A DNA stretch of 59,688 nt from a virus (Duplodnaviria; Caudoviricetes): positions 1 to 59,688 of the IMG/VR virus record IMGVR_UViG_3300036399_001256; one strand, given 5' to 3'. Each line of letters begins with the position of its first letter. The stretch's first letter is position 1. The translations under genes were made by a program, and so were the position numbers. The notes beneath the pieces are model-generated. The model worked only from the letters and a program-made list of their open reading frames with translations, was not told the DNA's origin and searched no databases. Below are positions 4,713 to 20,691 of this stretch, piece after piece.

Positions 4713-5087
4713 TCAGTGGTTCGACAAGGCATCACGCGCTATCCGCTTGATCTCATCGAAGCTGTCTTGAAGGATTCCAGTTGCCGCGTAGAACTCGATT
4801 TTCTCCATAGCCTCCCGCAGCTTTTCCGTTTCGCACGCGATCTTGAAGCACAGTCGCACGGCTACGTCTGACGCTTGCTCAGATGCGAAGACCTCACCGC
4901 TCGGCCTTGGATTCCAGCACATCGAGGCTCTTCCGATGGCCTCAAAGACTGCGTGATACATCTCGCTTGAGATGCGGTGGTTCAGTGGCCGCTCTTTTAG
5001 TGGGAGAGCCATCGCTTCGTCGTGAGACATGATCGTTGCCGTGAAGCATTTCGATCCGTCTGGTAGTTGTGTCATTGGTGTTTCCAT
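4713..5087 (-). CDS. Hypothetical cassette gene (cassette 4720-5177)
   Basis: 124-aa ORF bounded by GTTCGACAA (4719) and TTGTCGAAC (5093-5101). Confidence 0.75.
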   Translation of the reverse strand: METPMTQLPDGSKCFTATIMSHDEAMALPLKERPLNHRISSEMYHAVFEAIGRASMCWNPRPSGEVFASEQASDVAVRLCFKIACETEKLREAMEKIEFYAATGILQDSFDEIKRIARDALSNH

Positions 5088-5094
5088 AAGAATT

Positions 5095-5183
5095 GTCGAA
5101 CAAGGCGATGCACGAAATCGCCGGGATTGCTTTACTTGGAATCGCCGCCGTGCTCCGGCGATTCGTGATCTTGGGCGTTAGCC
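5095..5183 (+). other. attC-like site A
   Basis: GTCGAAC-AAGGC-GAT[G]CACGAA[A]TCGCCGG ... CCGGCGATTCGTGATC-TTGGGC-GTTAGCC, with two extrahelical bases. Confidence 0.85.
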
Positions 5184-5380
5184 TGAGAAAAATACTCCTC
5201 GCAGCATTTCCCGCAGACGGGCATTGCATACGGATCGGGGCTGAGTGTTCCGCCCTCGCTGTCGGGGTCGAACAGTTCTCCGCACGGGCATTTCATCCTG
5301 CCGTCAGGTTGGATCATTTCATCGTATGCGGCCTCGGCACGCATCTCGCCTCTTTCGATTGGGTCTGGTATGTAGGTCAT
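5132..5380 (-). CDS. Small Cys-rich cassette protein
   Basis: CPCG..VCGKCC; its stop lies inside attC A. Confidence 0.7.
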   Translation of the reverse strand: MTYIPDPIERGEMRAEAAYDEMIQPDGRMKCPCGELFDPDSEGGTLSPDPYAMPVCGKCCEEYFSQANAQDHESPEHGGDSK

Positions 5381-5391
5381 AAAATTAAGAA

Positions 5392-5493
5392 GGCTAACAA
5401 GGGAGTCATGGCAACGGGAACTAGCCGTTCAAGTCGGTGGTGGATTCGGGCTTCTGCGCGGCTAGTTCCCGCGCCATACCCCCAGCGTTCATA
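5392..5493 (+). other. attC-like site B
   Basis: GGCTAAC-AAGGG-AGT[C]ATGGCA[A]CGGGAACTAGCCG ... CGGCTAGTTCCCGCGCCATAC-CCCCAGC-GTTCATA. Confidence 0.85.
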
Positions 5494-5695
5494 ATTCGTC
5501 ATCATTTTCTTGATATGGAACAGCCCATGGATTCGGAGCGCCACGCCACCATCCGGGGCGATCTGGTCTCGCAAGCGAATGCCTCAATTCAATTCTGGTA
5601 ACGGCCTCCCGGTCGATCTCCTCGGGCGTCGGTGGGAGACGCAATCCGTCACGCGTGGTCGAGGTGTTATCCTGATCTGCTTGCATGACGTTCCG

Positions 5696-6076
5696 TCAGT
5701 GTTGTGGCTTTACTGCGTTTGGCGAGTCCCAAAGCCGATCCACCAAAGAAATCGCATCCTCGGTCGAGCGCACCACCCCGGCGATGCCGCCAGCGTTGGC
5801 CACAACTCCCAGAAACCGCTTCTGTCCATCGGTGGTCACCGCCTGATCCTTGACCTCGGCGGCGACGAACACGGCGATCTTCCGGCCGACGTCTTCGGGG
5901 CGAACGGTGTGACTGACCCAGCCGATGAGGTCGGAGGTGTCTTTTCCGAGTCCGGCTTTCACTTTGCGGGTGCCGTCGAGCGTGAGAAACAACCCGGTGT
6001 TGTTGCGGAGCCAGATCGCCCTCTCAGTGGCGGAAACCGCCAGTCGGATGTTGTTTTGGATGTTTGTCTCGCTCAT
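5696..6076 (-). CDS. VRR-NUC domain nuclease
   Basis: SETNIQNNI, TSDLIG, AAEVK, Q..FL..V...GG.AGVVRS..DA pattern. Confidence 0.88.
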   Translation of the reverse strand: MSETNIQNNIRLAVSATERAIWLRNNTGLFLTLDGTRKVKAGLGKDTSDLIGWVSHTVRPEDVGRKIAVFVAAEVKDQAVTTDGQKRFLGVVANAGGIAGVVRSTEDAISLVDRLWDSPNAVKPQH

Positions 6077-7452
6077 TTTATTTTGTGGGTGAATCGTCCT
6101 TTCCTAACATTCATTCGGACCCGCGCCCAGATTTCCGGCTTCGCGTATCCCCGTGAAATTCCAAGGCGGATGAAGTCCTCGACGGTCTTGCAATCTCGCT
6201 CCTCGATCTTCTTCCGTGCGGCGATGGCTTTGATTTCCTCAAGCTCGCCGGCGCGGATCTCCGCTCGCGATTTTGGCATGGCCGGATAGACCCATCCGCA
6301 GTAGGGGCAGGTTGGTGTCGGCTTGTGGGCGCGGTAGCACTCGGGGCACTCGCGAACCAGAATCTCACCCTCGCCCTTGTTCTTCGATTTCCGGCCGTCC
6401 AGCGTCCATTCGCGGGGGTCGTGGGCGAGTCCGTGCCGCTGGCAGTTGCCGACGTGGTCGAGGATGGTCGCATGGGTTTTGCCGTCGGCCTTGCGAAGCA
6501 CCCGCCCGACCTGCTGGAGAAACAAAATAAGACTCTCGGTGGGGCGCAGGAGTTGCGCCCCGGACACCACCGGAACATCCAGTCCCTCGCCGATCAGATC
6601 GCATGAGGTGATGATCTGCCACTTGCCCGTGCCAAGCCCCTCGATGCAGTCGTCACGCTCGGCGTCCTTCATCTTCCCGTCAACCGCCGCCGCCCGGTAT
6701 CCGGCCATCCGGTATTCGGCGGCAACGTCCTTCGCGTGCTGGACGGAAACGCAGAATGAGAGCATGGGTTGGCCATCGCAATACTTCTGGTAATGGCTGA
6801 CGGCGCATCCGGTGATGGTCGGTTTGTTCATCGCCGCCTCAAGCGCCGCCGTGTCGTAATCGCCGCGGATCTTCCGCACGCCCGTCATGTCGAGAGGGAC
6901 AGGCGGGGCGTAGTAGCGAGCCGGTGAGAGGTAGCCGTTTTCCGTAAGCCATCCAAGCGACGGACCCTCGATGAGTTCTTCGAACACATCACCCAGTCCG
7001 CGCCCGTCGAGGCGTTGAGGAGTGGCAGTGACGCCGATCACTCGCGCATCTGGGTAGGCATCGAGAACCTTGGTGTATTTGCTGGAAATCGCGTGGTGCG
7101 CTTCGTCGATGATGATGAGGTCGGGCGGAGGGATTTTTCCGACACGGCTCGGCAGGGAATCGATACTGCACACTTGGACCATGCAATCGGCATCCATGGG
7201 TTCGCCGGATCGGATGACGCCATGATAAACGCCGAATTGCGCGAGTGTCGCCCCGGCCTGCCGGGTGAGTTCCTTCCGGTGAGCGATGATCCAAACTCGA
7301 TTTCCCAGCGCCACCGCATTGCTCGCGATGTAGCTGAAAATCACCGTCTTCCCGCCACCAGTGGGCAGAACGATCACCACGCGCTTCCGCTTCCGCCGGA
7401 AAGCATCCCGCGTCCGGTTGGCAAGATCGTCCTGGTAGTCCCGCAGTTTCAT
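6073..7452 (-). CDS. SF2 DEAD/DEAH helicase with C-terminal Zn ribbon
   Basis: LRDYQ, PTGGGKT, DEAHH, TATP, EGLDVP, QQVGRVLR, CPEC..CPYCG; start set at MKLRDYQ. Confidence 0.92.
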   Translation of the reverse strand: MKLRDYQDDLANRTRDAFRRKRKRVVIVLPTGGGKTVIFSYIASNAVALGNRVWIIAHRKELTRQAGATLAQFGVYHGVIRSGEPMDADCMVQVCSIDSLPSRVGKIPPPDLIIIDEAHHAISSKYTKVLDAYPDARVIGVTATPQRLDGRGLGDVFEELIEGPSLGWLTENGYLSPARYYAPPVPLDMTGVRKIRGDYDTAALEAAMNKPTITGCAVSHYQKYCDGQPMLSFCVSVQHAKDVAAEYRMAGYRAAAVDGKMKDAERDDCIEGLGTGKWQIITSCDLIGEGLDVPVVSGAQLLRPTESLILFLQQVGRVLRKADGKTHATILDHVGNCQRHGLAHDPREWTLDGRKSKNKGEGEILVRECPECYRAHKPTPTCPYCGWVYPAMPKSRAEIRAGELEEIKAIAARKKIEERDCKTVEDFIRLGISRGYAKPEIWARVRMNVRKGRFTHKIK

Positions 7453-7613
7453 CTCAGCTTTTGGGTGAGGTGCCAGTTTCCGCAAATGTCGCACTGGTAG
7501 GTGAAGAGGCGTGGAACACTGGCGTCTTTGGATCGGCGGTTGATGATGACGCGCATCGCAGTTTGCTCGGATGGGTAGTCGCACTTCCTCGCGCATGCTT
7601 CCGCCCTTCGCAT
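7449..7613 (-). CDS. Small Zn-finger phage protein
   Basis: YQCDICGNWHLT motif; start uncertain. Confidence 0.55.
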   Translation of the reverse strand: MRRAEACARKCDYPSEQTAMRVIINRRSKDASVPRLFTYQCDICGNWHLTQKLR

Positions 7614-7642
7614 GTAGAGCACGTGTTCAACTTCACGTTTCG

Positions 7643-7918
7643 TCAGTTTGAAGTGCTGATCGCGCGGCTCTTGGGTGTGATTCCAGCTTTTGAAAATCGC
7701 CGATTCAAAGTTTTCAACAGCCTTGGATCTTGCTTCGGTGAGAGGTTGAGCATGGTTAGGAATCCGATGATCTCCTTGAGGTCGGTGATGGTGACCTTCT
7801 GGCGGAGGATTTCCTTTCGGAGTTTTGCGGTGGTGGCGAGGTGGCATTTCCGGTCTTTCTCTCGGGTTTCGCGGGATTTGGTGAGTCGTTTTTGGAGGGC
7901 GGTGATGGATAGGCGCAT
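7643..7918 (-). CDS. Hypothetical basic coiled-coil protein
   Basis: 91-aa ORF co-oriented with the operon. Confidence 0.5.
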   Translation of the reverse strand: MRLSITALQKRLTKSRETREKDRKCHLATTAKLRKEILRQKVTITDLKEIIGFLTMLNLSPKQDPRLLKTLNRRFSKAGITPKSRAISTSN

Positions 7919-7937
7919 TTTCTAGCAGAAAATTATG

Positions 7938-8375
7938 TTAACTGGGGTCCGGTGAATAAGCGTTCGGCAGACTAATTTTCTTCTCCCACCGACTCAGCGC
8001 GTGAGCGATGGCAATCATCTTGCTTGCCGCCGTTGCGGGAGACAGATCCTCAGTTTCCAGCGCACGGAAGGATGCACTGGTTCCGCACTGCCACTTCTCG
8101 CAGAGTGCGGCATGAGTCGAGAACTCAGGCGTTTTGACCTCCACCCCAAGCGATATGTGGACGGATCGCCCAGCATAGAATTTGAGGATTTCCATCAGGT
8201 CTTCGATGCCTTCAATATCGAATCCCGCCGCCGCGTCGTCTTCGTCGGCGTAGTATGATTCTCGGATTCTCTCATCGAGCTTCGGGTTGTCTCTCGCCTC
8301 CATTGGCCAGACTTCGCCGCTGTTTGACGAGTGGACGTTGAGTGAGAATTTTACAGTGGCTTGTTTGTGGTTCAT
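7938..8375 (-). CDS. Hypothetical cassette gene
   Basis: 145 aa; ends LPNAYSPDPS across the GTT at 7962. Confidence 0.7.
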   Translation of the reverse strand: MNHKQATVKFSLNVHSSNSGEVWPMEARDNPKLDERIRESYYADEDDAAAGFDIEGIEDLMEILKFYAGRSVHISLGVEVKTPEFSTHAALCEKWQCGTSASFRALETEDLSPATAASKMIAIAHALSRWEKKISLPNAYSPDPS

Positions 8376-8800
8376 GCGTTTGGGGTATCTAGGAATTTGA
8401 GGATGTCAGCGGCAGTTCCGCCCTTGGTGATGATTTCTCGGATGGTGTCGAAGTCCTGTCGTAGCAGTGCCACTTTGAGGGCTTCGATGTTGGCTTCGTT
8501 CTCGCACTTGGCGCGGAGGTCGCGGAGGCGTTCATTTTCGCGCACCAGCGTATTCACGGCAGCTTTCGCACCCTCCATGGCGAACAGATCGCTTCGCAGG
8601 TTCCATTTCCGCGCAGCTTCTTCTGCGGTGTGGCCATCCGGCCCGTAGGTGCGGCACTCTGGATTCGTGCATTCCACGGCAGCTTTCACGCCCGCCTTGA
8701 TTTCGATGTCGCTATGCACCAGTTCGGGAGCCCCTCCACAAAACGGGCAGCCGAACAAGGCATCGCTGCCAACCGGCATTTGCTTTTCAGTTTCACTCAT
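8372..8800 (-). CDS. Lar-family restriction-alleviation-like Zn-ribbon protein
   Basis: CPFCGG..VECTNPEC..AARKWNLR pattern; start codon lies in the loop of attC C. Confidence 0.75.
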   Translation of the reverse strand: MSETEKQMPVGSDALFGCPFCGGAPELVHSDIEIKAGVKAAVECTNPECRTYGPDGHTAEEAARKWNLRSDLFAMEGAKAAVNTLVRENERLRDLRAKCENEANIEALKVALLRQDFDTIREIITKGGTAADILKFLDTPNA

Positions 8801-8844
8801 GGTCGTTTTATTTGCTGCCGGTGGCAGGATTTGTTTCGTTCTCC
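8750..8844 (+). other. attC-like site C
   Basis: GCCGAAC-AAGGC-ATC[G]CTGCC[A]ACCGGCA ... TGCCGGTGGCAGGAT-TTGTTTC-GTTCTCC. Confidence 0.85.
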
Positions 8845-8851
8845 CGAAATG

Positions 8852-9031
8852 TCATTGACCCTCCGGCCATTTCACTGCGTCCATTTTCCCAGTGAACACC
8901 GCCCACGCTTCCCGGAGCTTTTCGCGGAGCGAGCGGCAGGTGTGATTGATCGGACGGGCAGGAACCCATTTGCCGTTGATTTCCGCCTTCGTGCTGGCGG
9001 CGGCTTCGAGGATGTCTTTGAGGTGATACAT
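8852..9031 (-). CDS. 59-aa cassette protein (below the ORF-track cutoff)
   Basis: Translated by hand: MYHLKDILEAAASTKAEINGKWVPARPINHTCRSLREKLREAWAVFTGKMDAVKWPEGQ; fills cassette 8839-9146. Confidence 0.75.
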   Translation of the reverse strand: MYHLKDILEAAASTKAEINGKWVPARPINHTCRSLREKLREAWAVFTGKMDAVKWPEGQ

Positions 9032-9063
9032 TGTTTTTCGTGTTATTGGAGATTCAAAAAAAG

Positions 9064-9152
9064 GGAGAACAAGGCGTGCGAGCTAACCGCCGGGACGCGC
9101 CTTGTTGAATTCAAGCTACCCATTCGGCGGTAGCTCCACATCGACGTTCGGC
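9064..9152 (+). other. attC-like site D
   Basis: GGAGAAC-AAGGC-GTG[C]GAGCT[A]ACCGCCG ... CGGCGGTAGCTCCAC-ATCGAC-GTTCGGC; bottom-strand extrahelical G and T as in canonical attC. Confidence 0.88.
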
Positions 9153-9186
9153 AGAGAAGGGATCAGACCTTCCCCGCCTTGGTTGG

Positions 9187-9405
9187 TTACTCGGCGTGCG
9201 CGAATTGCTGGCCCGCACGTTCAAGCCGCTTTCCGAGGATTTGGACGTATTCGCTCATCACCCGTTGCTGGGAGTAGAGCAGGTCCTTGTCTTCGCGTGG
9301 CAGCTTCGGGAATGCCGGATCGGCCATGAACGTATTGAGTTTGTTCAGGCGTCCAGCGGTTTCTTGCGTCTCAGTGAGGAGACGGGCTCTTTGTTCTTCG
9401 TTCAT
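9187..9405 (-). CDS. crAss001_48-like small phage protein
   Basis: R+..E..E...RL.KL..F.....F..L...+..LL..Q...M..Y..IL..R pattern. Confidence 0.7.
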   Translation of the reverse strand: MNEEQRARLLTETQETAGRLNKLNTFMADPAFPKLPREDKDLLYSQQRVMSEYVQILGKRLERAGQQFAHAE

Positions 9406-9436
9406 ATTTCGTTGGTGTTTCCGGCATCAACCCCCA

Positions 9437-9526
9437 GCCGAACAAGGCGTGGGTGGTCAACCGCCGGGAAAGTTTTATTTGGAATCGGGGTCTTGGGGCG
9501 GCGGTGCCACCACTTTGACGTTGTGT
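9437..9526 (+). other. attC-like site E
   Basis: GCCGAAC-AAGGC-GTG[G]GTGG[T]C[A]ACCGCCG ... CGGCGGTGCCACCAC-TTTGAC-GTTGTGT. Confidence 0.85.
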
Positions 9527-9840
9527 GGAATTGGAGGAATCGGCATCCACCCTTTGAGATCGCGGTTGTCTTCCGTCTCGAACTCCCACCAGCAATCGTG
9601 GACTTCCGTGCTGGTCACGGTTTCCGCACTCGCGTTGTAAGTGGCAACTGCCCAGGTGCAGCTCATCCGCGACCATGCAGCAGGGACTAGCCACGGCCAT
9701 CCGAAGTCGGCGAGGATCATTGTGCCGTCGTGCGGAGCTGTCTCCGCGTCCAACAAAGACACACAACAAGGCGGCGCAGATCGACCCCCACTAGCTTTCT
9801 TGTTTGCGGGACGTTTTGGCTTCGATGGTGTTTTTTTCAT
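9475..9840 (-). CDS. DUF551-like cassette protein
   Basis: ETAPHDGTMIL..GWMPIPP pattern; starts in attC F and stops in attC E. Confidence 0.65.
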   Translation of the reverse strand: MKKTPSKPKRPANKKASGGRSAPPCCVSLLDAETAPHDGTMILADFGWPWLVPAAWSRMSCTWAVATYNASAETVTSTEVHDCWWEFETEDNRDLKGWMPIPPIPHNVKVVAPPPQDPDSK

Positions 9841-9896
9841 ATGCGGAGATTTAGGGCTTTGGGGCCGTTGGGGTCGTCTGGCCTTGGACGTTCTCC
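9761..9896 (+). other. attC-like site F
   Basis: ACACAAC-AAGGC-GGC[G]CAGA[T]CGACCCC ... GGGGTCGTCTGGCC-TTGGAC-GTTCTCC. Confidence 0.8.
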
Positions 9897-10252
9897 GAAA
9901 GAAATGCGCGGGCGGTGTCGCCCATGAATTTCCAATCCTCGTAGGTGTCGCAGCCGTCGATGTATCGTTCTTCGATGACCATCAGCACAGCAATGGCCGC
10001 ATCCCGTTCGCGCTCCATCTTTTTCGAGTGGTCAGACATTGCGTAAGCGTATGCCGAGATCGGGACCCGTGAATCATGCATGCCGTCTGGTGTGCGTGAT
10101 ACAGCGTCCCACGCTTCGTTGCTCTCCGGCGTCGAAGACGAAGAACAAGCCGCCGCATCCGATGGGAATAAGCTTTCCAGTTGCTTGCCGCAATAGTGGC
10201 AGGCCGTTTCGGACGATTTGAACGTCACTTTGCAGGTAGGGCATGTTTTCAT
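9851..10252 (-). CDS. Hypothetical cassette protein with N-terminal Zn ribbon
   Basis: CPTC..CHYCG encoded within the loop of attC G; ends SENVQG.. inside attC F. Confidence 0.7.
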   Translation of the reverse strand: MKTCPTCKVTFKSSETACHYCGKQLESLFPSDAAACSSSSTPESNEAWDAVSRTPDGMHDSRVPISAYAYAMSDHSKKMERERDAAIAVLMVIEERYIDGCDTYEDWKFMGDTARAFLSENVQGQTTPTAPKP

Positions 10253-10295
10253 TTAGTTTTTCATTGGCTCCCACGGGAGCGTTTAGACGTTATGG
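10140..10295 (+). other. attC-like site G (imperfect stem, long loop)
   Basis: GAAGAAC-AAGCC-GCCGCATCCG[A]TGGGA ... TCCCACGGGAGCGT-TTAGAC-GTTATGG. Confidence 0.65.
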
Positions 10296-11093
10296 GGATG
10301 ACTCAATCCAATAACCTTTGTCGTATTTCCAGAGCGTGAAGCACGCCATGAACGCGGCGAGCGCCTGCTCGTAATTGTCCCAAATCTTCGGCTGGATCGG
10401 TCCCGGCGCGTCGCTTGGGATGAGTAGAGAAACCAGCAGGGGCCGTTCCTCTTCCGGCTCGGTGATGCACTCGGCGTAGGCGGCGAGCTGCATCGCCCAT
10501 TCCAGATAGAACACGCCATTGCGCTTCCCTTTCAGTCGTTGGGACTTCGCATCGACGATTGCCCGCCGTGCTCGTCCTTCGTGGTTGATCATGGCGTAGA
10601 TGTCGAGCCTCCCAGCGTATCCCTTACTGCTCACGCATGACTGTTCGGCGGAAATCACCTCGATCACGTTGTCCCGATACCACTGCTCGTATCCGGCGAC
10701 GTATTGCAGGATCTCGCTGGTGCCGGAGAACACCTTGTTGACGTTGTAGTGCTCGATCTGCTCATGCAGGAGCGTGCCCCACTCGGCGGCTTTGCGGGTC
10801 TCCTCCTCGGATGCTTCGGCGATGCGGGAGGCGAACATTTCGTCAGTCTCGCCACCCATGCGCTCCAGTTGGATAGCGGCCAAGATCGCCTTGTCGAGTT
10901 TCCACACGTCGAGCGCGGGCTTGGCCTTCATGCCAAGGATGTTCGTCACCGATGGCACCAGGTTCATTTTCTTAGCGTCGGTGACCGTGGTGGGTCGTGG
11001 GAGTCCCGTGGTTTTCCCCATGACGGTATGGCAGGGGTCGCCGTTGCGGTGATACCAATGAGAGTCACGCTCGCGTCGTTTGATGAGGGCCAT
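10290..11093 (-). CDS. PD-(D/E)XK exonuclease-like recombination nuclease
   Basis: PSVTNIL, GTLLHE, GYAGRLD, IVDAKS, QLAAY; start set at MALIKRR. Confidence 0.85.
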   Translation of the reverse strand: MALIKRRERDSHWYHRNGDPCHTVMGKTTGLPRPTTVTDAKKMNLVPSVTNILGMKAKPALDVWKLDKAILAAIQLERMGGETDEMFASRIAEASEEETRKAAEWGTLLHEQIEHYNVNKVFSGTSEILQYVAGYEQWYRDNVIEVISAEQSCVSSKGYAGRLDIYAMINHEGRARRAIVDAKSQRLKGKRNGVFYLEWAMQLAAYAECITEPEEERPLLVSLLIPSDAPGPIQPKIWDNYEQALAAFMACFTLWKYDKGYWIESSP

Positions 11094-11098
11094 GATCG

Positions 11099-11743: not shown

Positions 11744-11785
11744 GGGGCACCAGCAGGCGGGGCTGATTCGGGAGTTCCAATTGGA

Positions 11786-13063: not shown

Positions 13064-13150
13064 GACTGTGGTGGTATTGGTTGGTTGGAGAATTGCCAGG
13101 AGCGGCATGATTGCTGGCTGGGCGGTGCCGCTCCCGGTCGGGGACAAAAA

Positions 13151-13717: not shown

Positions 13718-13815
13718 GGGCGTGGTTCGGACTTTTGTATGGGGTGCGGAGCGGTGTTTTCACCCGTCCCGGGGTGTGGTTCCCAACCCGCACCGCTCCG
13801 CGTTTTTGCTGGGAG

Positions 13816-14145
13816 TTACTTGAGGTGGCGACAGGTTTTCGGCATGGATGCACGGTGGCGCTTTTCCAGTTTGGCTTGGGCAGCACAAAGTTTCCACCGT
13901 TCGGAGTTGGAGATGCGCGGGAGTCGCTTTTTGCTCAGTTGCTTTTCGAGGCGTGGCTCGGTCCGTGTCCGTGGGATATTGATCTTGGGATCGGGTGAGC
14001 GAAACAGACCAAGAACAACAACCCGCTTGATGCCTTGGTTGTCGATCCAGTGAGGAATCGCAAATGCCATCCGTTGAGTAATCAGCATTTCACCGTAGCT
14101 GAATTTCGCGCCGTAGTTTTGATGAAGGGGCTTGAGGATTTTCAT
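13816..14145 (-). CDS. Hypothetical basic protein
   Basis: 109-aa ORF co-oriented with the operon. Confidence 0.5.
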   Translation of the reverse strand: MKILKPLHQNYGAKFSYGEMLITQRMAFAIPHWIDNQGIKRVVVLGLFRSPDPKINIPRTRTEPRLEKQLSKKRLPRISNSERWKLCAAQAKLEKRHRASMPKTCRHLK

Positions 14146-14157
14146 GATGGGCGCGAG

Positions 14158-14682
14158 TTAGAATGGAGGGATATCGTCATCATCATCAACGGCTGGAGCC
14201 GCAGATGGTGGCGGTGGAGCGGATCGCGCCGGGGGCGGCGATGCCGGAGCGGGGGCGGCACCTGTGCCTTTCTTGTAGATCCAGCGATCAACCTCGTTCC
14301 GCATGTAGTCTTTCCCCTGCACGGGTTTCTGAACGAGGGTGGCGCGGCCCTTGCGGTTGAGAAGCCACTTGATGAAGTTGATGTCGGTCCAGTCGATGCG
14401 TCGCCCAACGGGAAGCGCATCAGCGCCAACGCATTTGATATACTGGTCGATCTTCCACTTCATGTTTGCGGCGAAGACAATGTTCTCGTAAACCTGAGTC
14501 GTCGCCCCATCCGATTCCCGCGTGAATTCGAGTTTCAGCGGGATGTATGGATTCTTGCCAGGGTTGCGAACCACGGCGTTGATTTCGATGTGGGTGAATG
14601 GATATTCGCCCTTTTCGAAAACAACGAACTGGCGCTCGACGGGATCTTCGACGGTGTAATTGGTGAGGAGGTCTTCGGACAT
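14158..14682 (-). CDS. Single-stranded DNA-binding-like protein (DUF669-like)
   Basis: OB-like core, Pro/Ala linker, acidic tail DDDDDIPPF; start set at MSEDLL. Confidence 0.75.
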   Translation of the reverse strand: MSEDLLTNYTVEDPVERQFVVFEKGEYPFTHIEINAVVRNPGKNPYIPLKLEFTRESDGATTQVYENIVFAANMKWKIDQYIKCVGADALPVGRRIDWTDINFIKWLLNRKGRATLVQKPVQGKDYMRNEVDRWIYKKGTGAAPAPASPPPARSAPPPPSAAPAVDDDDDIPPF

Positions 14683-14686
14683 GGGA

Positions 14687-15502
14687 TTAGAATTTGAGGA
14701 TTTTGCCAGCGACGATGTCGCGGGGGGATTTTTCGATGGAGCCGATGTAAACCGGCACGTTTTCAAGATTCGCTTCGAGGGCGGTGATGAGGTTGTCGAA
14801 CGCCTTGTCTTCGACTTTCTCGGAGTGGAGGATCTTCGTCTCGAACGTGAGACGCCCATCGTTGATCCGATAGCGAAGCAGCACCGTGAGTTCAAACGTG
14901 GTTTGATCTTCCGATCCTCGGAACACCGGGATGTGGATGACGAGTTGGGATGGCACTTTCGTTTCACCGCCCGCACCAGCCTTCGCTTCGGTGGTTTCTT
15001 CCCATGCAATCTGCCGGTCGCCGTTGGCGAGGCTTTGCACCGATTTGAACACCGTGTTGCGCTTGCCTTGGAGGCTGGTTGCGATGGTGAGAACGTCCGC
15101 AGCGGCTGGCGACTTGATGTTTTCCAGATGCTCCTCGATGAACTCAATAAATGAGGTTTGAGAGAGGGGTTTCTGGTCGATGCCCATCCAGTCGCGCCAT
15201 TCCCTCGTGTGGCGGAGTTGATAGGTGGCGGAGTGGTCGCCCCATTGAGCATCGAACGGATCAGCGGCGTGCCAGTTCATTACCGTTTGGATGCGGCGTT
15301 TATCGGGGTCGGCAAAAACCACCGCACTTTCGTTGTGCTGGTTCAAATAATCGGTTAGAGCACCGATGGTATCGAGTTTGAGCGTGGCGTATTTGCGCCC
15401 GGGCGAGTCGGCGTCAAAATCATCCGGGATCATGGAGTGACCCGATGGGATGACACACTTCTTGGTTGGTAGCCGCAGAGCGGCGAGGATTTCCGGAATC
15501 AT
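14687..15502 (-). CDS. DUF2303 (YfdQ-like) protein
   Basis: WGDHSATY..EW..W..LSQTSFIEFIEE..IPVF..LRYR pattern. Confidence 0.85.
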   Translation of the reverse strand: MIPEILAALRLPTKKCVIPSGHSMIPDDFDADSPGRKYATLKLDTIGALTDYLNQHNESAVVFADPDKRRIQTVMNWHAADPFDAQWGDHSATYQLRHTREWRDWMGIDQKPLSQTSFIEFIEEHLENIKSPAAADVLTIATSLQGKRNTVFKSVQSLANGDRQIAWEETTEAKAGAGGETKVPSQLVIHIPVFRGSEDQTTFELTVLLRYRINDGRLTFETKILHSEKVEDKAFDNLITALEANLENVPVYIGSIEKSPRDIVAGKILKF

Positions 15503-15532
15503 GGTATTGGTTGTGAGATTGGGGTTGGGAGA

Positions 15533-15898
15533 TTATTCGCCGACGGCGGGTTTGTTCACGGCCTTGGGCTCACCAAACGGGAGTTTCATTTGCCGGGGGT
15601 TGTCCTTCACCAGATGCCCGTCTTCGGTGACGAAGAACATATTGGGCGCGGTGTCGGGATAGAGCGGAGTCGTGGAGACTTTACCGGAAACCTCGACTTG
15701 GCCGGCGTCGCGGCCGCGGGGCTTCACTTCGATGGTGAGGGTGAGCTTCCCGGTTTTGCCGGTTTGCTCGACATCTTTGACGAGCCTGGTCATGGCTTCG
15801 CTCGCCTGATCGGCAAGGTCACCTTGTGAAATCGCGTTCAGGGCGTACGCGAACGCATTGGAGGGCATTTCTGCTTCTTTTTCTTCTTCGGCTAACAT
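15533..15898 (-). CDS. YfdP-like partner of DUF2303
   Basis: TGKTGKLTLTIEVKP..FF..DG.L..DNPRQMKL; adjacent to the DUF2303 gene. Confidence 0.75.
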   Translation of the reverse strand: MLAEEEKEAEMPSNAFAYALNAISQGDLADQASEAMTRLVKDVEQTGKTGKLTLTIEVKPRGRDAGQVEVSGKVSTTPLYPDTAPNMFFVTEDGHLVKDNPRQMKLPFGEPKAVNKPAVGE

Positions 15899-15901
15899 GG
15901 C

Positions 15902-16858
15902 TTATTCGGTTGGGGATTCGTCTGTGGGGGTGGCTTTGAAGGCGGCGATGGCTTCGAGGAAACCATCCTTGCGGGTGAGGATCTGCTTGCGCTTCGCGGC
16001 AAGCAGATCGCGGAGAGTTTGGCCAGGGCGGAGCCATTCGATGGAGACGAGGTAGTCGATGGCATCTTGTTGGATGTCGCCAAACAGCTTCTCAATTTCG
16101 TCCTCCGTGGGAGCGGCGACGGGATTGAACTTCGCGGCTTCGGCGGCGAACGCATCCCACGAAAGATCCATCTCGAAAGGCAGCGGGATTCGGCGCTTGG
16201 CGAGGAATGCAGGACGCTCTTCGGTGTAAAGGACGCGCACACCCTCACCGCGAGCCTTGGCTTTGCGGGCGTTTTTCTCTTTGAGGAGATCCACCTTGTA
16301 TCCGGCAAAGAACATATGATCGACAGCCTCATGAAAGAGCAGCGCCGCCTTATCATTCATCTTGAGCGAAAAGCGGTCGTATCGCTCGCCTTGGAAAATA
16401 TCATCCACGGTTTTCATTTGGGCGTGACCCAAACAGATGACGTTCATGGTCGAGCGCAGGCGCTTGAGGGTTGACCAGAATTCCACCCACTCCTCGCATG
16501 CGATGACATATCCCTTGCCGAAACCGCCGCCGACTTCCTCGATGGATTTGGCGTTGTTCTCTTTGCAGACGTGAGCCCAAACCAGCGGTTCAAGGCCGTT
16601 GATGGTGTCGATCACCAGTGATTTGAAGTCATGCTTCTCAAACATGAGTTCGTTGATGGCCTGCTTCACTTCGGCCCATGTTTTCGGGGTCGGGAAGCTG
16701 GCAACGTCGAGACTTCCAACGCCGTCGTCGGTGCCGAGGAAGATCGGATTTGGAGCGGCTGCACCGAACGTGGATTTACCAACACCACCGGGACCGTAGA
16801 GACCGAGAAAATGAGGGCGAAGCTGGGGACCTTTGTGGACTTTAGAGAGTAGTGACAT
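15902..16858 (-). CDS. Sak4-like AAA ATPase (AAA_24 recombinase)
   Basis: LYGPGGVGKST, LVIDT, GFGKGY, ICLGH. Confidence 0.85.
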   Translation of the reverse strand: MSLLSKVHKGPQLRPHFLGLYGPGGVGKSTFGAAAPNPIFLGTDDGVGSLDVASFPTPKTWAEVKQAINELMFEKHDFKSLVIDTINGLEPLVWAHVCKENNAKSIEEVGGGFGKGYVIACEEWVEFWSTLKRLRSTMNVICLGHAQMKTVDDIFQGERYDRFSLKMNDKAALLFHEAVDHMFFAGYKVDLLKEKNARKAKARGEGVRVLYTEERPAFLAKRRIPLPFEMDLSWDAFAAEAAKFNPVAAPTEDEIEKLFGDIQQDAIDYLVSIEWLRPGQTLRDLLAAKRKQILTRKDGFLEAIAAFKATPTDESPTE

Positions 16859-16859
16859 A

Positions 16860-17105
16860 TCAGTGGAATTCGTAGGTTTCTTCCTTCATCGCCAGCGTGC
16901 TCAGGCGTGCGGTTTCCTTGGCCGCATGGATCAGCAGGAGGATGAAGGTGATAAGGGAGACAACGCATCCACCGAGCGACAAGGTGTCTTGGTTCTTGAA
17001 TGCGGCGATGGAGAAGCCTCCGGCGGAGACTGCGAGGAAAAGCCAGATGAGGCTTTGCCAGAGTTTGGCGCGTGACTGCGCCCATAGGATTTCTGAACGT
17101 TTCAT
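16860..17105 (-). CDS. Small two-TM membrane protein
   Basis: Two hydrophobic segments. Confidence 0.6.
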   Translation of the reverse strand: MKRSEILWAQSRAKLWQSLIWLFLAVSAGGFSIAAFKNQDTLSLGGCVVSLITFILLLIHAAKETARLSTLAMKEETYEFH

Positions 17106-17112
17106 GATGTTG

Positions 17113-17436
17113 TTAGGATTTCTTCACCGCGCCTCTACGGGTCGATTTTAAAGACACAGCAAGGCATTGTTTTTCGCGGTCGCCACCCGCGCGCTTGAGG
17201 GCGATGAAGTCTTTCAGGTCGCTCAGCCGGTAGCGAATGACGGTCGGTGAGAACACGACCTTGGGAACACCGATGGAATCGAGCGTCTTGATGTTGCAGT
17301 CGATCAGTCCGGCGGCTTGCGATGGGCTGACCAATTCCAGATCATCGCCATACTCGGCGATAAGAGCACGGACAGCGTCGGCGCGGATCGAGTCGATGAG
17401 GGCTTGGCGCTCCTCGCTGGTCAGAATCAGGTCCAT
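17113..17436 (-). CDS. Excisionase-like winged HTH protein
   Basis: LVSPSQAAGLIDCNIKTL..IRYRLSDLKDFI pattern. Confidence 0.7.
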   Translation of the reverse strand: MDLILTSEERQALIDSIRADAVRALIAEYGDDLELVSPSQAAGLIDCNIKTLDSIGVPKVVFSPTVIRYRLSDLKDFIALKRAGGDREKQCLAVSLKSTRRGAVKKS

Positions 17437-17438
17437 GC

Positions 17439-17645
17439 TCAGTGTGCGGGCTCAAGTTTGGGGCCGGAGAATTTCGCTTCGCCGCTCTTGAGGCGCTCGA
17501 TGCCGTCGAGAAGGAGGACTCGGGCGAGGTTGGATTCAGTGGTTCCGTTGTCGCGGGCGAGCTTTCCGAGTTCGCTCTTGGCGGGTCCGATGGGGACATT
17601 TACGCGACCCTCGGCGTTTTTGGCTGGTCGTTTCGGCTTGGGCAT
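17439..17645 (-). CDS. Cro-position regulator (possible ribbon-helix-helix)
   Basis: RVNVPI strand followed by two helices; first gene of the lytic arm, divergent from the repressor. Confidence 0.6.
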   Translation of the reverse strand: MPKPKRPAKNAEGRVNVPIGPAKSELGKLARDNGTTESNLARVLLLDGIERLKSGEAKFSGPKLEPAH

Positions 17646-17656
17646 GGCGGGAAACT

Positions 17657-17726
17657 GTTTCCAAATTTGGAAACTGCCAAGGAAAAAGTTTCCAAAAATG
17701 GAAAATGAATGTTACCCATTGGAAAT
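17657..17726. promoter_or_regulatory. Immunity operators between the divergent regulators
   Basis: Perfect palindrome GTTTCCAAATTTGGAAAC (17657-17674), near copy TTTCCAAAAATGGAAA (17689-17704), degenerate third copy overlapping the repressor ATG. Confidence 0.8.
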
Positions 17727-18180
17727 GAATACCTACCCAGTCACGGAATCCATGCGCCAGATCACTTTGCAGGCGATGCGCCAACGGAAAATGAACAAGA
17801 CCGACCTCGCCACCGCCATTGAACTTGGCAAGGCATGGGTGACAAAGTTTTTGGATGGTTCGATGAAGACGATGAGGGAGCGAACGATGTTTGATTTGCA
17901 GGATCTACTAGGAATCCAGTATTTCACTATTGAAAAGGCAGTTGGCGACCGTTCGCCCCTTGCAAACAAGCTCGCAGCCGCGATTGACTCCGATCCTCAG
18001 TTCGCGAAACTCACCACCGCATTGCATGAGGTTCTGCTAGAAGCACGCGCTACTTACACCCCTCGTTTCGTGCCAACAAAGGAGATGTCGGCGCTGGGAA
18101 AAAAGATCATCGCCATCGCCTCAGAGAATCCAGAAAAACCCGGCAAGGTCGCCCGCCTGGTTCTTGAATTACTGGCATGA
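17725..18180 (+). CDS. CI-like HTH repressor without a peptidase domain
   Basis: MRQRKMNKTDLATAIELGKAWVTKFLDG HTH; start reassigned to 17725. Confidence 0.75.
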   Translation: MNTYPVTESMRQITLQAMRQRKMNKTDLATAIELGKAWVTKFLDGSMKTMRERTMFDLQDLLGIQYFTIEKAVGDRSPLANKLAAAIDSDPQFAKLTTALHEVLLEARATYTPRFVPTKEMSALGKKIIAIASENPEKPGKVARLVLELLA

Positions 18181-18254
18181 TCGCAGACTGATCACAACGG
18201 CAATGATCGCCACCACCACCAGATTTCACGCCACCCAATCCCCGCTGAATCGTC

Positions 18255-18446
18255 TCACTCGTAAACCCTTCCCCTGTTGTCGAATGAGTAGTCCCGATCA
18301 TCCTCCACCGGCTCAGTTTTCTCGATCACTTCCGGCGGGGCGTCCAGCCATGCCACCACCGCCGACACCAGCCCCCACACACCGACGATTCCAAGCGCGG
18401 CGAAAAACGCCGCGATGACCATCTGTCGCCGGAAACTGATCCCCAT
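18255..18446 (-). CDS. Small single-TM protein
   Basis: Hydrophobic stretch VIAAFFAALGIVGVWGLVSAVVAWL; start uncertain. Confidence 0.45.
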   Translation of the reverse strand: MGISFRRQMVIAAFFAALGIVGVWGLVSAVVAWLDAPPEVIEKTEPVEDDRDYSFDNRGRVYE

Positions 18447-18460
18447 ACCGCTACTCCACC

Positions 18461-19681
18461 ATGCCCCGCCCTGCCCCGTCAACCACCACCGTGCGCGTCC
18501 GCTCGGTGTCGTTGAGCATCTACCCGCTCGCCGCCCGCCCCGGGTATTTCCAGTTTCAGTATCGCGACCTCGACGGGAAGACGAAGAAAATCACCCGCTC
18601 CAACCTCCCAGCGGCGAAGCAGGCGGCGAGTGATGTCGCCATCCGCATCCACAACGGGGCGGTCAGCATCGAGGATCTCACGCCCGACCAACTCCGCATC
18701 GTGCGGCGGCTCCTGGACGTCGATCCATCGCTGGCGGAGGTGGATGAGTTTCTCGCGTGGCGGCACCGTGCGCGGCCGGTGACGCCGACGGCGGATGTGA
18801 TCGCCGGATTCCTCGACGCAAAGCGCACAAGCGCCGGGAGGTCGCCACACAACCTCCGCACGCTGGAGCGCCACCTTGGGATTCTGGATGGGCTGGGGAA
18901 TCGCCCGCTATCCTCCCTCGTCGTCGGCGACATTGCCGCGCTCCTCGCCGGGAAATCACCGCGGACTCGCCGGAACACCCGGGCGTCGTGGGTGACGCTG
19001 TGGCGGTGGGCCCGTCGCAACGGGCATCTCCCGGATGATTCGACGATGACGGCACCGGAGCGCATCGAGCGCCCGTCGATAGATCGACCGATCCCCACCA
19101 CCTACGAGCCGGAGGAGTTGCGGGCCCTACTCCGCGAGGTTTCGCCGAAATACCTGCCATGGCTCGCACTGGCCGCGTTTGCGGGGATTCGCACGGAAGA
19201 GGTGTGCCCGGACCGGCACGGCACCAAATCGCCGTTGGATTGGGCGGATTTTCATTGGGACCGGAAGTTGATCATCATCCGGCCGGAAACCGCGAAGATG
19301 AAGCATCGGCGGGTCGTGCCGATTCTGCCGGCGCTCGAAGCATGGTTGTCACCGTTGCGGCAGGACTCCGGACCGGTCGGCCCCACGCTTCCCCCGCACC
19401 AGCCCGCCGCCGGGGGGCGGGAGTCTGAGACGACGCGACTCGGGGGATTCATCGGGGGGTGGAAGCGAAACGCTCTCCGGCACTCGTTCATTTCCTACCG
19501 GGCGGCGCTGGTGGGGCTGGCGCAGACGGCGATGGAGGCGGGGAACTCGGAGAGTGAATCGAGGAAAAGCTACAACGACGCCAAGGGGGCGGACGTGGCG
19601 GGGGAGTGGTTTGGGGTGTTTCCGCAAAGTTTCCGCGATTCTTCACCGCCTCGCGATCCGCCTCCATCCGTGGAACACTGA
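18461..19681 (+). CDS. int: Phage tyrosine integrase (not IntI)
   Basis: GIRTEE (R), ETAKMK (K), NALRHSFISY, GNS, RKSY (Y); N-terminal arm-binding region; no IntI-specific insertion. Confidence 0.92.
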   Translation: MPRPAPSTTTVRVRSVSLSIYPLAARPGYFQFQYRDLDGKTKKITRSNLPAAKQAASDVAIRIHNGAVSIEDLTPDQLRIVRRLLDVDPSLAEVDEFLAWRHRARPVTPTADVIAGFLDAKRTSAGRSPHNLRTLERHLGILDGLGNRPLSSLVVGDIAALLAGKSPRTRRNTRASWVTLWRWARRNGHLPDDSTMTAPERIERPSIDRPIPTTYEPEELRALLREVSPKYLPWLALAAFAGIRTEEVCPDRHGTKSPLDWADFHWDRKLIIIRPETAKMKHRRVVPILPALEAWLSPLRQDSGPVGPTLPPHQPAAGGRESETTRLGGFIGGWKRNALRHSFISYRAALVGLAQTAMEAGNSESESRKSYNDAKGADVAGEWFGVFPQSFRDSSPPRDPPPSVEH

Positions 19682-19811
19682 AAACCCTCGTTTTCAAGGA
19701 TTTCGGGTCGCAACGCCCCGCCATGATCCGCCCGATTCATGGTTCGAATCCCTCCCTGTCCGCTGTTGGTTGTAGGTGTTCCACGGCGTGTTTCCGTAAA
19801 GTTTCCGTGAT
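19616..19811 (+). other. attP: tRNA 3'-end core with flanking arm-type repeats
   Basis: Core GGTTCGAATCCCTCCCTGTCCGC (19741-19763); 24-bp direct repeats at 19616 and 19788; 11-bp inverted repeats at 19668 and 19776. Confidence 0.85.
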
Positions 19812-20071
19812 CAAGAGGCAATACCCACGTTCGGCGGAAGAATGGCATTCAGGACGGCGCGGACAGTTCGGATTTCCTGCGCGGTGAGTTCGCCGCAGCG
19901 GAGTCGCAGACCCTCGTCGGACTGTGAACGCCAGTCGATAACTCTGCGTTGGGTCTGCATGGACTCAGCCATCAAAGCCTCTCGGCAGTCGCAAGCGAAG
20001 TGGTGCGCCACGCAACGCCGAACAAAGCGGTCGAGGTCAACGGGCGGGGCGGTGTGTGTCGGAGTTTCCAT
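19811..20071 (-). CDS. Hypothetical cassette gene
   Basis: CVAHHFACDCRE and LRLRCGELTAQEIRTVRAVL motifs; starts in the loop of attC H. Confidence 0.7.
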   Translation of the reverse strand: METPTHTAPPVDLDRFVRRCVAHHFACDCREALMAESMQTQRRVIDWRSQSDEGLRLRCGELTAQEIRTVRAVLNAILPPNVGIAS

Positions 20072-20139
20072 GTAGTTAGAGAGTTTTGGGAGGTAGCGGA
20101 GTGGCGTTGTCCGCCCGTGCCTCACCTATTGCGTTCGGT
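20017..20139 (+). other. attC-like site H
   Basis: GCCGAAC-AAAGC-GGT[C]GAGG[T]C[A]ACGGGCGG ... CCGCCCGTGCCTCACC-TATTGC-GTTCGGT. Confidence 0.85.
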
Positions 20140-20435
20140 GGAGATAATTTAAGACCGCACCAAGGGCAGAATCCCATGGGTGGGAGGTCGCATCCGACTT
20201 TCCACGATCCATTCCATTCGCGGATCAATGCGCCATAACCTTCATTATCTGTGCAGGGTTGTTTCGCGTCGCGGAATGGGAGGCATTCGCAGCTTGGTTG
20301 TTTTTCAAGCCATCGCCCGCAGACGGATCGGTATTGGTTGCCATGCCATCCTTTTCGGTCATTCAGATACTTTATCAGGCTTGGTGCGCTCATATCTGAT
20401 GCTTTTTGCTTATTTGATGCTTTTAGGTCATTCAT
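20076..20435 (-). CDS. Cys-rich cassette protein
   Basis: FCPWCGLKL near the C-terminus; stops inside attC H. Confidence 0.65.
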   Translation of the reverse strand: MNDLKASNKQKASDMSAPSLIKYLNDRKGWHGNQYRSVCGRWLEKQPSCECLPFRDAKQPCTDNEGYGALIREWNGSWKVGCDLPPMGFCPWCGLKLSPPNAIGEARADNATPLPPKTL

Positions 20436-20674
20436 ACTCTACTCGATTTAGGGTGTCTTCCTGTTTTCCATTCTTCGCGCCCGACGATTCGATGATCGTG
20501 GACGCGGTGTTGATATTCTCCGCACTTGATACACACCTCTTCGCTTGGTGATCCAAATCCGTTTATTGCGGTTATTGACCAGTCGTGACGGCATTCGCGC
20601 AACCACCGAACAATAGCCTGCATGGAACGCCGAGGAAGCGTTCTGGCAGGGCGTAGTTTTAGGGCGGCGTCCAT
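20432..20674 (-). CDS. Small Zn-binding cassette protein
   Basis: CRHDW..CIKCG; start codon lies in the right arm of attC I. Confidence 0.65.
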   Translation of the reverse strand: MDAALKLRPARTLPRRSMQAIVRWLRECRHDWSITAINGFGSPSEEVCIKCGEYQHRVHDHRIVGREEWKTGRHPKSSRV

Positions 20675-20691
20675 GAGGCTAGGCGTTCAAA
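20605..20691 (+). other. attC-like site I
   Basis: ACCGAAC-AATAG-CCT[G]CATGG[A]ACGCC ... GGCGTCCATGAGG-CTAGGC-GTTCAAA. Confidence 0.85.

Follow-up and report, generated by a model that had tools for sequence, protein, structure and literature searches.

Bottom-strand cassette genes of a lake phage cross the G|TT recombination point in one reading frame: attCs as candidate portable stop-start couplers

Introduction

Integron cassettes are usually viewed as promoterless genes, each followed by a non-coding recombination hairpin, the attC site. The DNA analyzed here, which we call the window, is the whole of the IMG/VR virus record IMGVR_UViG_3300036399_001256 (59,688 bp, with direct terminal repeats), in which attC-like hairpins stand among cassette genes that run antisense to the attC top strand. 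How does such a gene find its stop, and the next gene its start, when cassettes can be reshuffled? An initial annotation, made from the sequence, proposed that genes running through the G/TT crossover read it in frame as asparagine (Asn), that the neighboring attC supplies the stop, and that reshuffling swaps short C-terminal tails. We document here the sites and the cassette boundaries, natural gain and loss of cassettes, the phase rule at the crossover, tail swapping on identical protein bodies, and an enrichment of stop-start junctions in attCs. These observations are probably best explained by a phage cassette pool with a standard phase, in which attCs would serve as portable stop-start couplers.

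Phage genomes have already been reported to contain attC sites and clusters of attC sites lacking integron-integrases (CALINs) (Qi et al., 2023; PMC9892861). Within the limits of our literature searches, the bottom-strand orientation, the fixed crossover phase and the attC-embedded stop-start couplers have not been described before.

Results

Nine attC sites form three arrays on the plus strand

Nine attC-like hairpins lie on the plus strand of the window, in arrays of two (A and B), five (C to G) and two (H and I) sites. Bit scores below are from R1, a covariance model of the site that was used on viral contigs and bacterial genomes; attC G is sub-threshold in R1 and was placed by hand. Frame 0 is the antisense frame in which the GTT of the R' box is read as the codon AAC.

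attC A, 5095..5183, plus: R'' GTCGAAC, R' GTTAGCC; 87.7 bits; frame-0 tail NAQDHESPEHGGDSK, then stop
attC B, 5392..5493, plus: right end of array 1
attC C, 8750..8844, plus: 38.8 bits; frame-0 tail NETNPATGSK, then stop, unused by the current neighbor
attC D, 9064..9152, plus: 80.7 bits; frame-0 tail NVDVELPPNG, then stop, used by g1 in a natural variant without cassettes E and F
attC E, 9437..9526, plus: 94.6 bits; frame-0 tail NVKVVAPPPQDPDSK, then stop
attC F, 9761..9896, plus: frame-0 stop TAA 10 nt ahead of the f1 ATG
attC G, 10140..10295, plus: right end of array 2; degenerate; its long loop encodes the zinc-ribbon-like N-terminus of g1
attC H, 20017..20139, plus: 39.1 bits; frame-0 stop TAA 4 nt ahead of the h1 ATG
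attC I, 20605..20691, plus: right end of array 3; 63.2 bits; frame-0 stop TAG 4 nt ahead of the i2 ATG
Left junction of array 1, 4719..4725, plus: GTTCGAC, that is, backbone G plus TTCGAC of cassette A; 7/7 complementary to R'' of attC A; no attC leftward
Left junction of array 2, 7962..7968, plus: GTTCGGC; 7/7 complementary to R'' of attC C
Left junction of array 3, 19829..19835, plus: GTTCGGC; 7/7 complementary to R'' of attC H

All nine sites begin xxxxAAC and finish GTTxxxx; the RYYY/RRRY parts of the boxes fit loosely and are mostly GCCG.../...CGGC. All fold into imperfect hairpins; each has an unpaired spacer, and two bases bulge out of its left (R''/L'') arm. The R'' arm has a 5-nt spacer, 3 bp and a bulge, and the R' arm a 6-nt spacer, a spacing that agrees with the textbook attC layout. 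An alignment with its structure supplied by hand (A2, four window sites and four sites of unrelated viral contigs) had 91.5% of its cells paired, 9 of its 18 pairs changed on both sides, and AAC and GTT invariant; none of 500 shuffles reached as high a value. RNAalifold found no structure in a 12-sequence alignment (A1), in which the loops were misaligned. An attC of an otherwise unrelated viral contig (L005) matches attC E over 75 bp at 96% identity.

Cassette starts (TTxxxx) are complementary to their own R'' at 6/7 or 7/7 positions in nine of nine cases, including the array starts at 4719, 7962 and 19829, and the same complementarity was seen in most pairs of other viral and bacterial arrays. 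Every array has an attC at its high-coordinate end and none at its low-coordinate end, and no partner 7-mers were found to the right of B, G or I. From array ends and complementarity together it follows that the attC top strand is the plus strand and that the crossover lies at the right-hand GTT. The arrays qualify as CALINs (at least two attCs in a row, without intI), and TIGR02249, the model for the integron integrase, matched nowhere in the 59,688-bp record.

Cassette genes leave through the R' crossover in a single phase

Eleven open reading frames (ORFs) were assigned to the nine cassettes.

a1 (cassette A), 4713..5087, minus: 124 aa; crosses the junction as ...LSN, then backbone H and stop; codon score best in the called frame
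b1 (cassette B), 5132..5380, minus: 82 aa; crosses attC A R' as ...QAN; stop in the attC A loop
c1 (cassette C), 7938..8375, minus: 145 aa; crosses the junction as ...LPN, then backbone AYSPDPS and stop
c2 (cassette C), 8372..8800, minus: 142 aa; Lar-like restriction alleviation protein (PF14354 at 1.5e-07, phrog_599); start in the attC C loop
d1 (cassette D), 8852..9031, minus: 59 aa; phrog_21988 at 8e-22; own stop, its last base (8852) 11 nt short of the AAC of attC C R' (8840)
e1 (cassette E), 9187..9405, minus: 72 aa; crAss001_48 family (PF21825 at 4.8e-15); own stop, its last base (9187) 38 nt short of the AAC (9148-9146) of attC D R'
f1 (cassette F), 9475..9840, minus: 121 aa; start inside attC F; crosses attC E R' as ...PHN
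g1 (cassette G), 9851..10252, minus: 133 aa; start inside attC G; crosses attC F R' as ...SEN
h1 (cassette H), 19811..20071, minus: 86 aa; start inside attC H; crosses the junction as ...PPN, then backbone VGIAS and stop
i1 (cassette I), 20076..20435, minus: 119 aa; crosses attC H R' as ...PPN
i2 (cassette I), 20432..20674, minus: 80 aa; start inside attC I; coding score ambiguous

The called frame had the highest codon score for 10 of these 11 ORFs; f1, i1 and i2 score close to zero or below it. As a separate observation, third-position G+C is lower in cassette genes (0.47-0.70) than in family-assigned backbone neighbors (0.73-0.76; the helicase, the exonuclease, 5696-6076 and 20679-21272), which fits a separate gene pool.

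The eight peptides on which the initial annotation had built its frame rule are present on the minus strand, each reading a plus-strand GTT as AAC: LSNH-stop (4727-4713), QANAQ (5185-5171), LPNAY (7970-7956), PHNVK (9528-9514), SENVQ (9898-9884), PPNVG (19837-19823), PPNAI (20141-20127) and DLNA-stop (20693-20679). The in-frame Asn thus stands for all eight genes. Two details had to be amended: the crossovers at 4719, 7962 and 19829 are array-backbone junctions and not attC R' boxes, and the gene ending in DLNA-stop (20679-21272) belongs to the backbone and not to the cargo. The rule itself holds in seven of the nine cassettes, whose crossing genes leave as xxx-AA|C, three of them into the backbone at array starts and four into the neighboring attC.

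We then tabulated the AAC frame over a larger set of phage attCs, the check that had been proposed for this claim. R1 finds further arrays in viral contigs, and the viral set comprised 14 sources (the window and 13 others; L118 is a near-duplicate of L120) with 43 attCs. L002, L057, L069, L059, L061, L071 and L011:4707 were excluded from the counts as doubtful, because they lack a GTT or lie inside long genes, and L115-L117, weak R1 matches, were judged by eye only. Thirty-six long antisense ORFs reach R' in this set: 29 cross it in the AAC frame, none crosses in another frame, and 7 have a stop that overlaps the AAC, so the random frames that would have spoken against the rule were not seen. 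The figure of 29 includes the duplicate L118 and attC C, whose gene d1 stops earlier; with the duplicate contig and the false call removed, the viral count is 27:0:6, and the sharing of one frame is far beyond chance (binomial p 1.3e-13). The frames of the bacterial control, 18:13:16, differ from the viral ones (Fisher 1.5e-8), the bacterial antisense frames being mostly shadows of sense genes.

The frame over R'' had been described as not conserved, and it is indeed mixed in the window (TTG TTC, TGT TCT, TGT TGT, GTT, GTT), while outgoing genes of the wider set show no preference for an R'' phase (13:15:9).

Cassettes are gained and lost in lake populations at the same G|TT points

Sixteen of the 20 listed metagenome runs (all but one labelled lake water metagenome) contain at least one-fifth of the 2.5 kb at 7900-10400. 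Contigs of four runs were compared with the window; parts that they do not cover are uninformative, and joints with a short side (21-24) were ignored as likely foreign. A contig of run X6 has a joint 4718->5177 (458 nt skipped, 3-nt ambiguity), which removes exactly cassette A (4720-5177). A contig of run X7 has a joint 9142->9887 (744 nt skipped, 7-nt ambiguity), which removes exactly cassettes E and F, from the G|TT of attC D to the G|TT of attC F. The two runs come from different studies. Both natural joints fall on G|TT points, in agreement with the proposal that R' alone is the exchange point, and the 4718->5177 deletion takes attC A plus the gene on its left, which only the reading with the top strand on plus allows.

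Other contigs of run X7 leave the window at 20096 (inside the attC H loop) and at 20138 (just past R'). These are loose ends, which suggest another cassette beside attC H in that population.

Protein bodies end at the asparagine and carry context-dependent tails

All nine window attCs hold a stop in frame 0, giving tails of 1 to 21 residues past the Asn. If tails belong to the attC and not to the protein, then homologous proteins should agree up to the Asn and diverge beyond it. This pattern was seen in each of the three families tested, g1, f1 and c1. For g1, 80 homologues were found, with Asn121 conserved in at least 90%; the Asn is present in 22 of the 23 that were aligned, and beyond it sequence and length all differ. 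For f1, 13 of 15 matches have the same body (ending ...PIPHN), and 10 of these 13 end ...N, followed by unrelated tails. For c1, 13 of 24 homologues have the Asn, eight close ones with L(P/Q)N have tails that all differ, and one homologue carries a tail that resembles one from the f1 family. Conservation through the tail, the outcome that had been named as refuting, was not seen among close homologues except in a c1 subgroup of four proteins with the common tail TPNA. Conversely, unrelated crossing ORFs of different contigs have only their attC-encoded tails in common.

The proposal that reshuffling swaps tails is borne out most directly by P0001 (g1 90% cluster). P0001 and window g1 (P0081) are identical over 122 residues, through Asn121 and Val122; past residue 122, P0001 continues with DVELPPNG, the attC D tail, and P0081 with QGQTTPTAPKP, the attC F tail. 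The attC D tail on P0001 is exactly what the deletion of E and F in run X7 predicts. A g1-based locus search in viral and metagenome contigs gave distant homologues, with the exception of metagenome locus L121, which matches all 133 residues of g1, tail included, at 100% identity; it did not yield the DNA of the P0001 variant. A 30-nt piece of the g1 3' end matched no viral contig. The tails are presumably translated in cells.

A related observation concerns N-termini. The loop and left arm of attC F (9761-9840) encode a leader, MKK.PSKPKRPANKKASGGRSAPPC, that recurs on the unrelated bodies P0104, P0105 and P0099; the identity stops at the R'' GTT. The remaining two of the 15 f1 matches have only the attC-encoded N-terminal leader in common with f1, on an unrelated body. 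The recurrence on unrelated bodies implies that attCs donate N-terminal leaders too.

Phage attCs are enriched in stop-start junctions

That every window attC contains a stop in the AAC frame held in nine of nine sites; taken alone it is just modestly unusual, for 84/129 bacterial attCs also have a frame-0 stop, compared with 38/43 phage attCs (p 0.003). The frame-0 tails of phage attCs have a median of 15 codons, and stops in the other frames were counted in 31/43 (frame 1) and 25/43 (frame 2).

We defined a tight junction as an ATG that opens an antisense ORF of at least 50 codons and lies within -7..+10 nt of the frame-0 stop. Tight junctions are present in 21/41 phage attCs versus 5/129 bacterial ones, and ATGA overlaps number 10 in phages, where they sit in the hairpin loop, versus 2 (of 129) in bacteria. 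The description of phage attCs as compact stop-start junctions is thereby supported. In the window, the starts at 8800, 9840, 10252, 20071 and 20674 do fall within attC sites (C, F, G, H and I) and are the first ATGs of their ORFs, so that for five of the nine cassette-first genes the start belongs to the attC of the same cassette.

Phages and Akkermansiaceae use one attC family in opposite orientations

R1 also matches 75 of 151 sampled genomes of the Akkermansiaceae, the family of the metagenome-assembled genome (MAG) G001. G001 encodes an IntI (G001:C14:147610-148557; 379 bits, cut-off 265) with four R1 attCs directly downstream. In this locus (L074 3601-5001, minus, = G001:C14), intI lies upstream of the cassettes and shares its strand with their top strands; the order in G001:C14 is a 466-aa open frame, a 137-aa ORF and then the first attC. 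Integrons whose intI is co-oriented with the cassettes form the 'inverted integrase' group, and the Akkermansiaceae MAG resembles that group in that intI and the four attC top strands share a strand; the likeness extends to the host integron only, where the cassettes are sense.

Across 29 Akkermansiaceae loci with 131 R1 matches, 104 cassettes were classed: 79 are sense, 5 antisense and 20 ambiguous. In the window, all 11 cassette ORFs read from the minus strand and so run opposite to the attC top strand; every ORF in the 14 viral sources is likewise antisense. The cassette genes of the window are therefore inverted relative to normal cassettes, as had been noticed at the outset (a top-strand gene with its own attC behind it is usual in cassettes but does not define them), and the difference in orientation is a phage-versus-host contrast within one attC family. 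The phage host probably belongs to the Akkermansiaceae, as the attCs point to. A host IntI may move the phage cassettes. Seventeen long frame-0 antisense ORFs of the bacterial arrays showed no protein similarity to phage cassette ORFs or to the proteins collected.

The arrays sit beside early genes of the phage

The arrays are embedded in a minus-strand early/replication block at 2.5-21.5 kb that encodes a primase/helicase, a RadD-like helicase, a Cas4-like exonuclease and others. The flanking features are as follows.

Backbone gene right of array 1, 5489-5686, minus: TGA stop overlaps the AAC of attC B
Backbone exonuclease gene right of array 2, 10290-11093, minus: TAA stop overlaps the AAC of attC G
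Backbone gene right of array 3, 20679-21272, minus: 197 aa from the ATG at 21272; last codons ...DLNA and stop into attC I
Tyrosine integrase of the phage, 18461-19681, plus: phrog_1 at 3.4e-19; no NCBIfam model matched

Close relatives of the phage were not found by an exonuclease-based locus search in viral collections, and blastn against 50,697 phage records gave just two 105-bp matches in the helicase. Several further features were noted along the way. Residues 22-74 of the backbone protein at 20679-21272 match ten separate stretches of P0107 (1,447 aa), a small repeated domain. One plus-strand ORF of about 5,360 codons (31348-47427) takes up more than a quarter of the phage genome and was in the long-ORF list used for codon training. 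A 109-aa ORF at 13816-14145 (minus) is missing from a run X7 contig (joint 13826->14150, 323 nt skipped, one letter between). This ORF, which lies away from the attC arrays, has the look of a small gene that is mobile or optional. After the integrase gene, the stretch at 19690-19760 has a T-loop-like motif, GGTTCGAATCC, where ARAGORN calls no tRNA; it is probably an attP core with a tRNA 3' fragment, and some 70 nt separate it from the left junction of array 3.

Discussion

A proposed mechanism and the evidence that limits it

We consider it likely that the window samples a phage cassette pool with a standard phase, and that its attCs are portable stop-start couplers. On this model, three integrase-less clusters of genuine integron-type cassettes would have become established in a temperate lake phage, inserted at GTT sites at or just past the stop codons of phage early genes, and gain and loss would continue through recombination at the G|TT of R'. 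A gene on the attC bottom strand would start in or just beyond its own attC, run to the far end of the cassette, usually without a stop of its own, and exit as xxx-AA|C. Every attC contributes the C, which invariably completes the split codon to AAC (Asn). The ribosome would then enter the right arm of the next attC in a fixed frame, add a short tail and meet a stop, often near or over the next ATG in the loop. Reading the right arm would melt the hairpin and so expose the next start; a terminating ribosome may in this way open the attC hairpin and hand over to the next gene (termination-reinitiation coupling). One cassette carries both the stop that an incoming gene would use and the start of its resident gene; the coupler would therefore travel with the cassette, and could do so in no other orientation. 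We infer that the phase is a selected standard interface.

Several observations weigh against this model or narrow it. Crossing is not obligatory: cassettes D and E (2/9) have their own stops before the boundary, and of the 36 long antisense ORFs that reach an R' box in the viral set, 7 end on the AAC. Five of the 43 phage attCs have no internal frame-0 stop and would give tails of 36 to 117 codons, and 65% of bacterial attCs do have such a stop, which is thus partly a family trait. Within the window, crossing genes enter tight junctions only at F (10 nt), H (4 nt) and I (4 nt), and the stop-start gaps at attC A and E are 44 and 69 nt, so coupling alone cannot explain everything. Starts were taken as the first ATG, and the script for the R'' phase and gap tally took the wrong outgoing ORF at attC F. 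None of the seven crossing window ORFs matched a Pfam or PHROG family, yet three have many homologues. At array 3, the closest homologue of the backbone gene at 20679-21272 (P0106, 84% identity) ends ...DLTPL, where the predicted ancestral ending is ...DLNVGIAS. Finally, the phage has no IntI, its host assignment is based on attC likeness only, and no cassette common to the sampled bacterial arrays and the phages was found.

Alternative explanations

The looseness of many junctions, with the gaps at A and E as window examples, is what would be expected if the phase reflected survivorship only, that is, selection against long read-through tails, with attCs terminating translation and having no role in starting the next gene. 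The numbers lend this some weight: frame 0 gives short tails, with a stop in 38/43 attCs and the median of 15 codons given above, frame 2 mostly runs on (25/43), and bacterial attCs already carry frame-0 stops (84/129). Nevertheless, termination alone hardly explains why an ATG lies near the stop in 21/41 phage but 5/129 bacterial attCs, with ten exact ATGA overlaps, and survivorship leaves the absence of an own stop in most genes unexplained. We judge it unlikely. That the repeats are not integron sites at all, but phage terminators, REP-like elements or phage-integrase sites that merely resemble attCs, could be argued from the tyrosine integrase at 18461-19681, from the missing IntI, and from R' boxes that read GTTCNNN more often than the textbook GTTRRRY. 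However, in an Akkermansiaceae genome R1 arrays immediately follow a bona fide IntI, and R1 marks 131 sites in sense-cassette arrays of that family, the spacing agrees with the known attC layout, and gain and loss occur exactly at G|TT; on these three grounds we rejected this explanation, which has very little probability left.

A still smaller probability attaches to the idea that the cassettes are canonical and were mis-oriented by us: the attCs would then lie on the minus strand, every gene would precede its own attC, and the tail would be a fixed part of the protein. The sites are near-palindromic, and the 7-bp flank complementarity is symmetric and fits both orientations. Yet each array has an attC only at its high-coordinate end with no partner 7-mers to the right of B, G and I, the bulges are in the left arm, R1 scores the plus strand far above the minus strand (80.7 versus 17 bits for attC D), the deletions join at right-hand GTTs and take attC A plus the gene on its left, and different tails occur on the same protein body. 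Array ends, bulges, strand scores, deletion joints and tail swaps thus led us to reject it. Least credible of all, and next to impossible in our estimate, is chance or gene calling: spurious minus-strand ORFs, or a coincidence of eight cases. The seven crossing ORFs without a Pfam or PHROG family, and the near-zero or negative codon scores of f1, i1 and i2, would be expected of an artefact. By contrast, g1, f1 and c1 have 80, 15 and 24 public homologues, the called frame is the best for 10 of the 11 ORFs, and the AAC frame prevails by 27-29 to 0 over 14 viral sources against a flat control of 18:13:16; homologues, codon scores and frame count rejected it.

Relation to known systems

The window arrays share with integron cassettes and CALINs the AAC/GTT boxes, the bulged hairpin, cassette starts complementary to their own R'', the G|TT crossover and the lack of an integrase. 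They differ from the phage attCs of PMC9892861, as these are described there, in that all genes are on the bottom strand, mostly lack a stop of their own and exit in one fixed phase. The relevant passages of PMC9892861 contain nothing on orientation, frame or stop supply, on which its supplementary phage attC lists might bear. More generally, we found no description of bottom-strand cassettes with a fixed crossover phase in the literature searched, and the same supplement could bear on this point.

Frames that span a crossover are known from class 1 integrons, where ORF-11 and ORF-18 of attI1 take their stop from the first cassette, and where termination near the next start is held to couple translation (PMC8876359). 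The window frames likewise span the crossover and have an in-phase stop supplied by the neighbor, while coupling is here proposed from the sequence. As that source presents them, ORF-11 and ORF-18 are leaders of 11 or 18 codons on the top strand at attI; the frames described here are full-size bottom-strand cargo under a pool-wide rule. The same source treats attC hairpins as translation barriers that are relieved by short ORFs inside the attC (PMC8876359). The idea that a ribosome entering an attC melts the hairpin and aids the next gene is similar; the known cases use a separate short ORF, whereas here the preceding cargo gene would itself enter the hairpin in the standard frame. Lastly, cassette insertion at non-att genomic sites, termed attG, has been described (preprint 10.1101/2022.09.11.507474). 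As in the attG cases reported there, the window arrays lie outside any attI, with backbone G plus cassette TT at the left junctions and an attC at the right end; unlike them, the targets are in a phage genome, at or beside the stop codons of three early genes.

Implications

A wider reading joins these elements, and we put it forward tentatively, as possible but a little short of probable. Phages of Akkermansiaceae would hold a private bottom-strand cassette pool under a universal phase convention, in which the body ends xxx-AA and the attC adds the C, a short tail with its stop, and the start of the following gene. The recombination site would double as a portable translational coupler, making any cassette translatable anywhere in a phage operon. 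The reversed orientation would silence phage genes inside the host integron, integron sites would have evolved into coding and translation-control elements, and the host IntI would shuffle phage accessory and anti-defence genes.

Whatever the fate of that wider reading, live cassette turnover is documented in lake phage populations, and one attC family carries genes in opposite orientations in phages and in their likely hosts. For annotation, tails of 1 to about 20 residues that depend on context, and sometimes attC-encoded leaders, should not be counted as part of the conserved protein. The hairpin of these cassettes would be read by the ribosome, with its right arm giving one gene a C-terminal tail and a stop, and its loop and left arm often giving the following gene its start and first residues. 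The fixed crossover phase would make the modules interchangeable, and thus offers a testable answer to how cassettes can be reshuffled in a tight phage operon without loss of expression.

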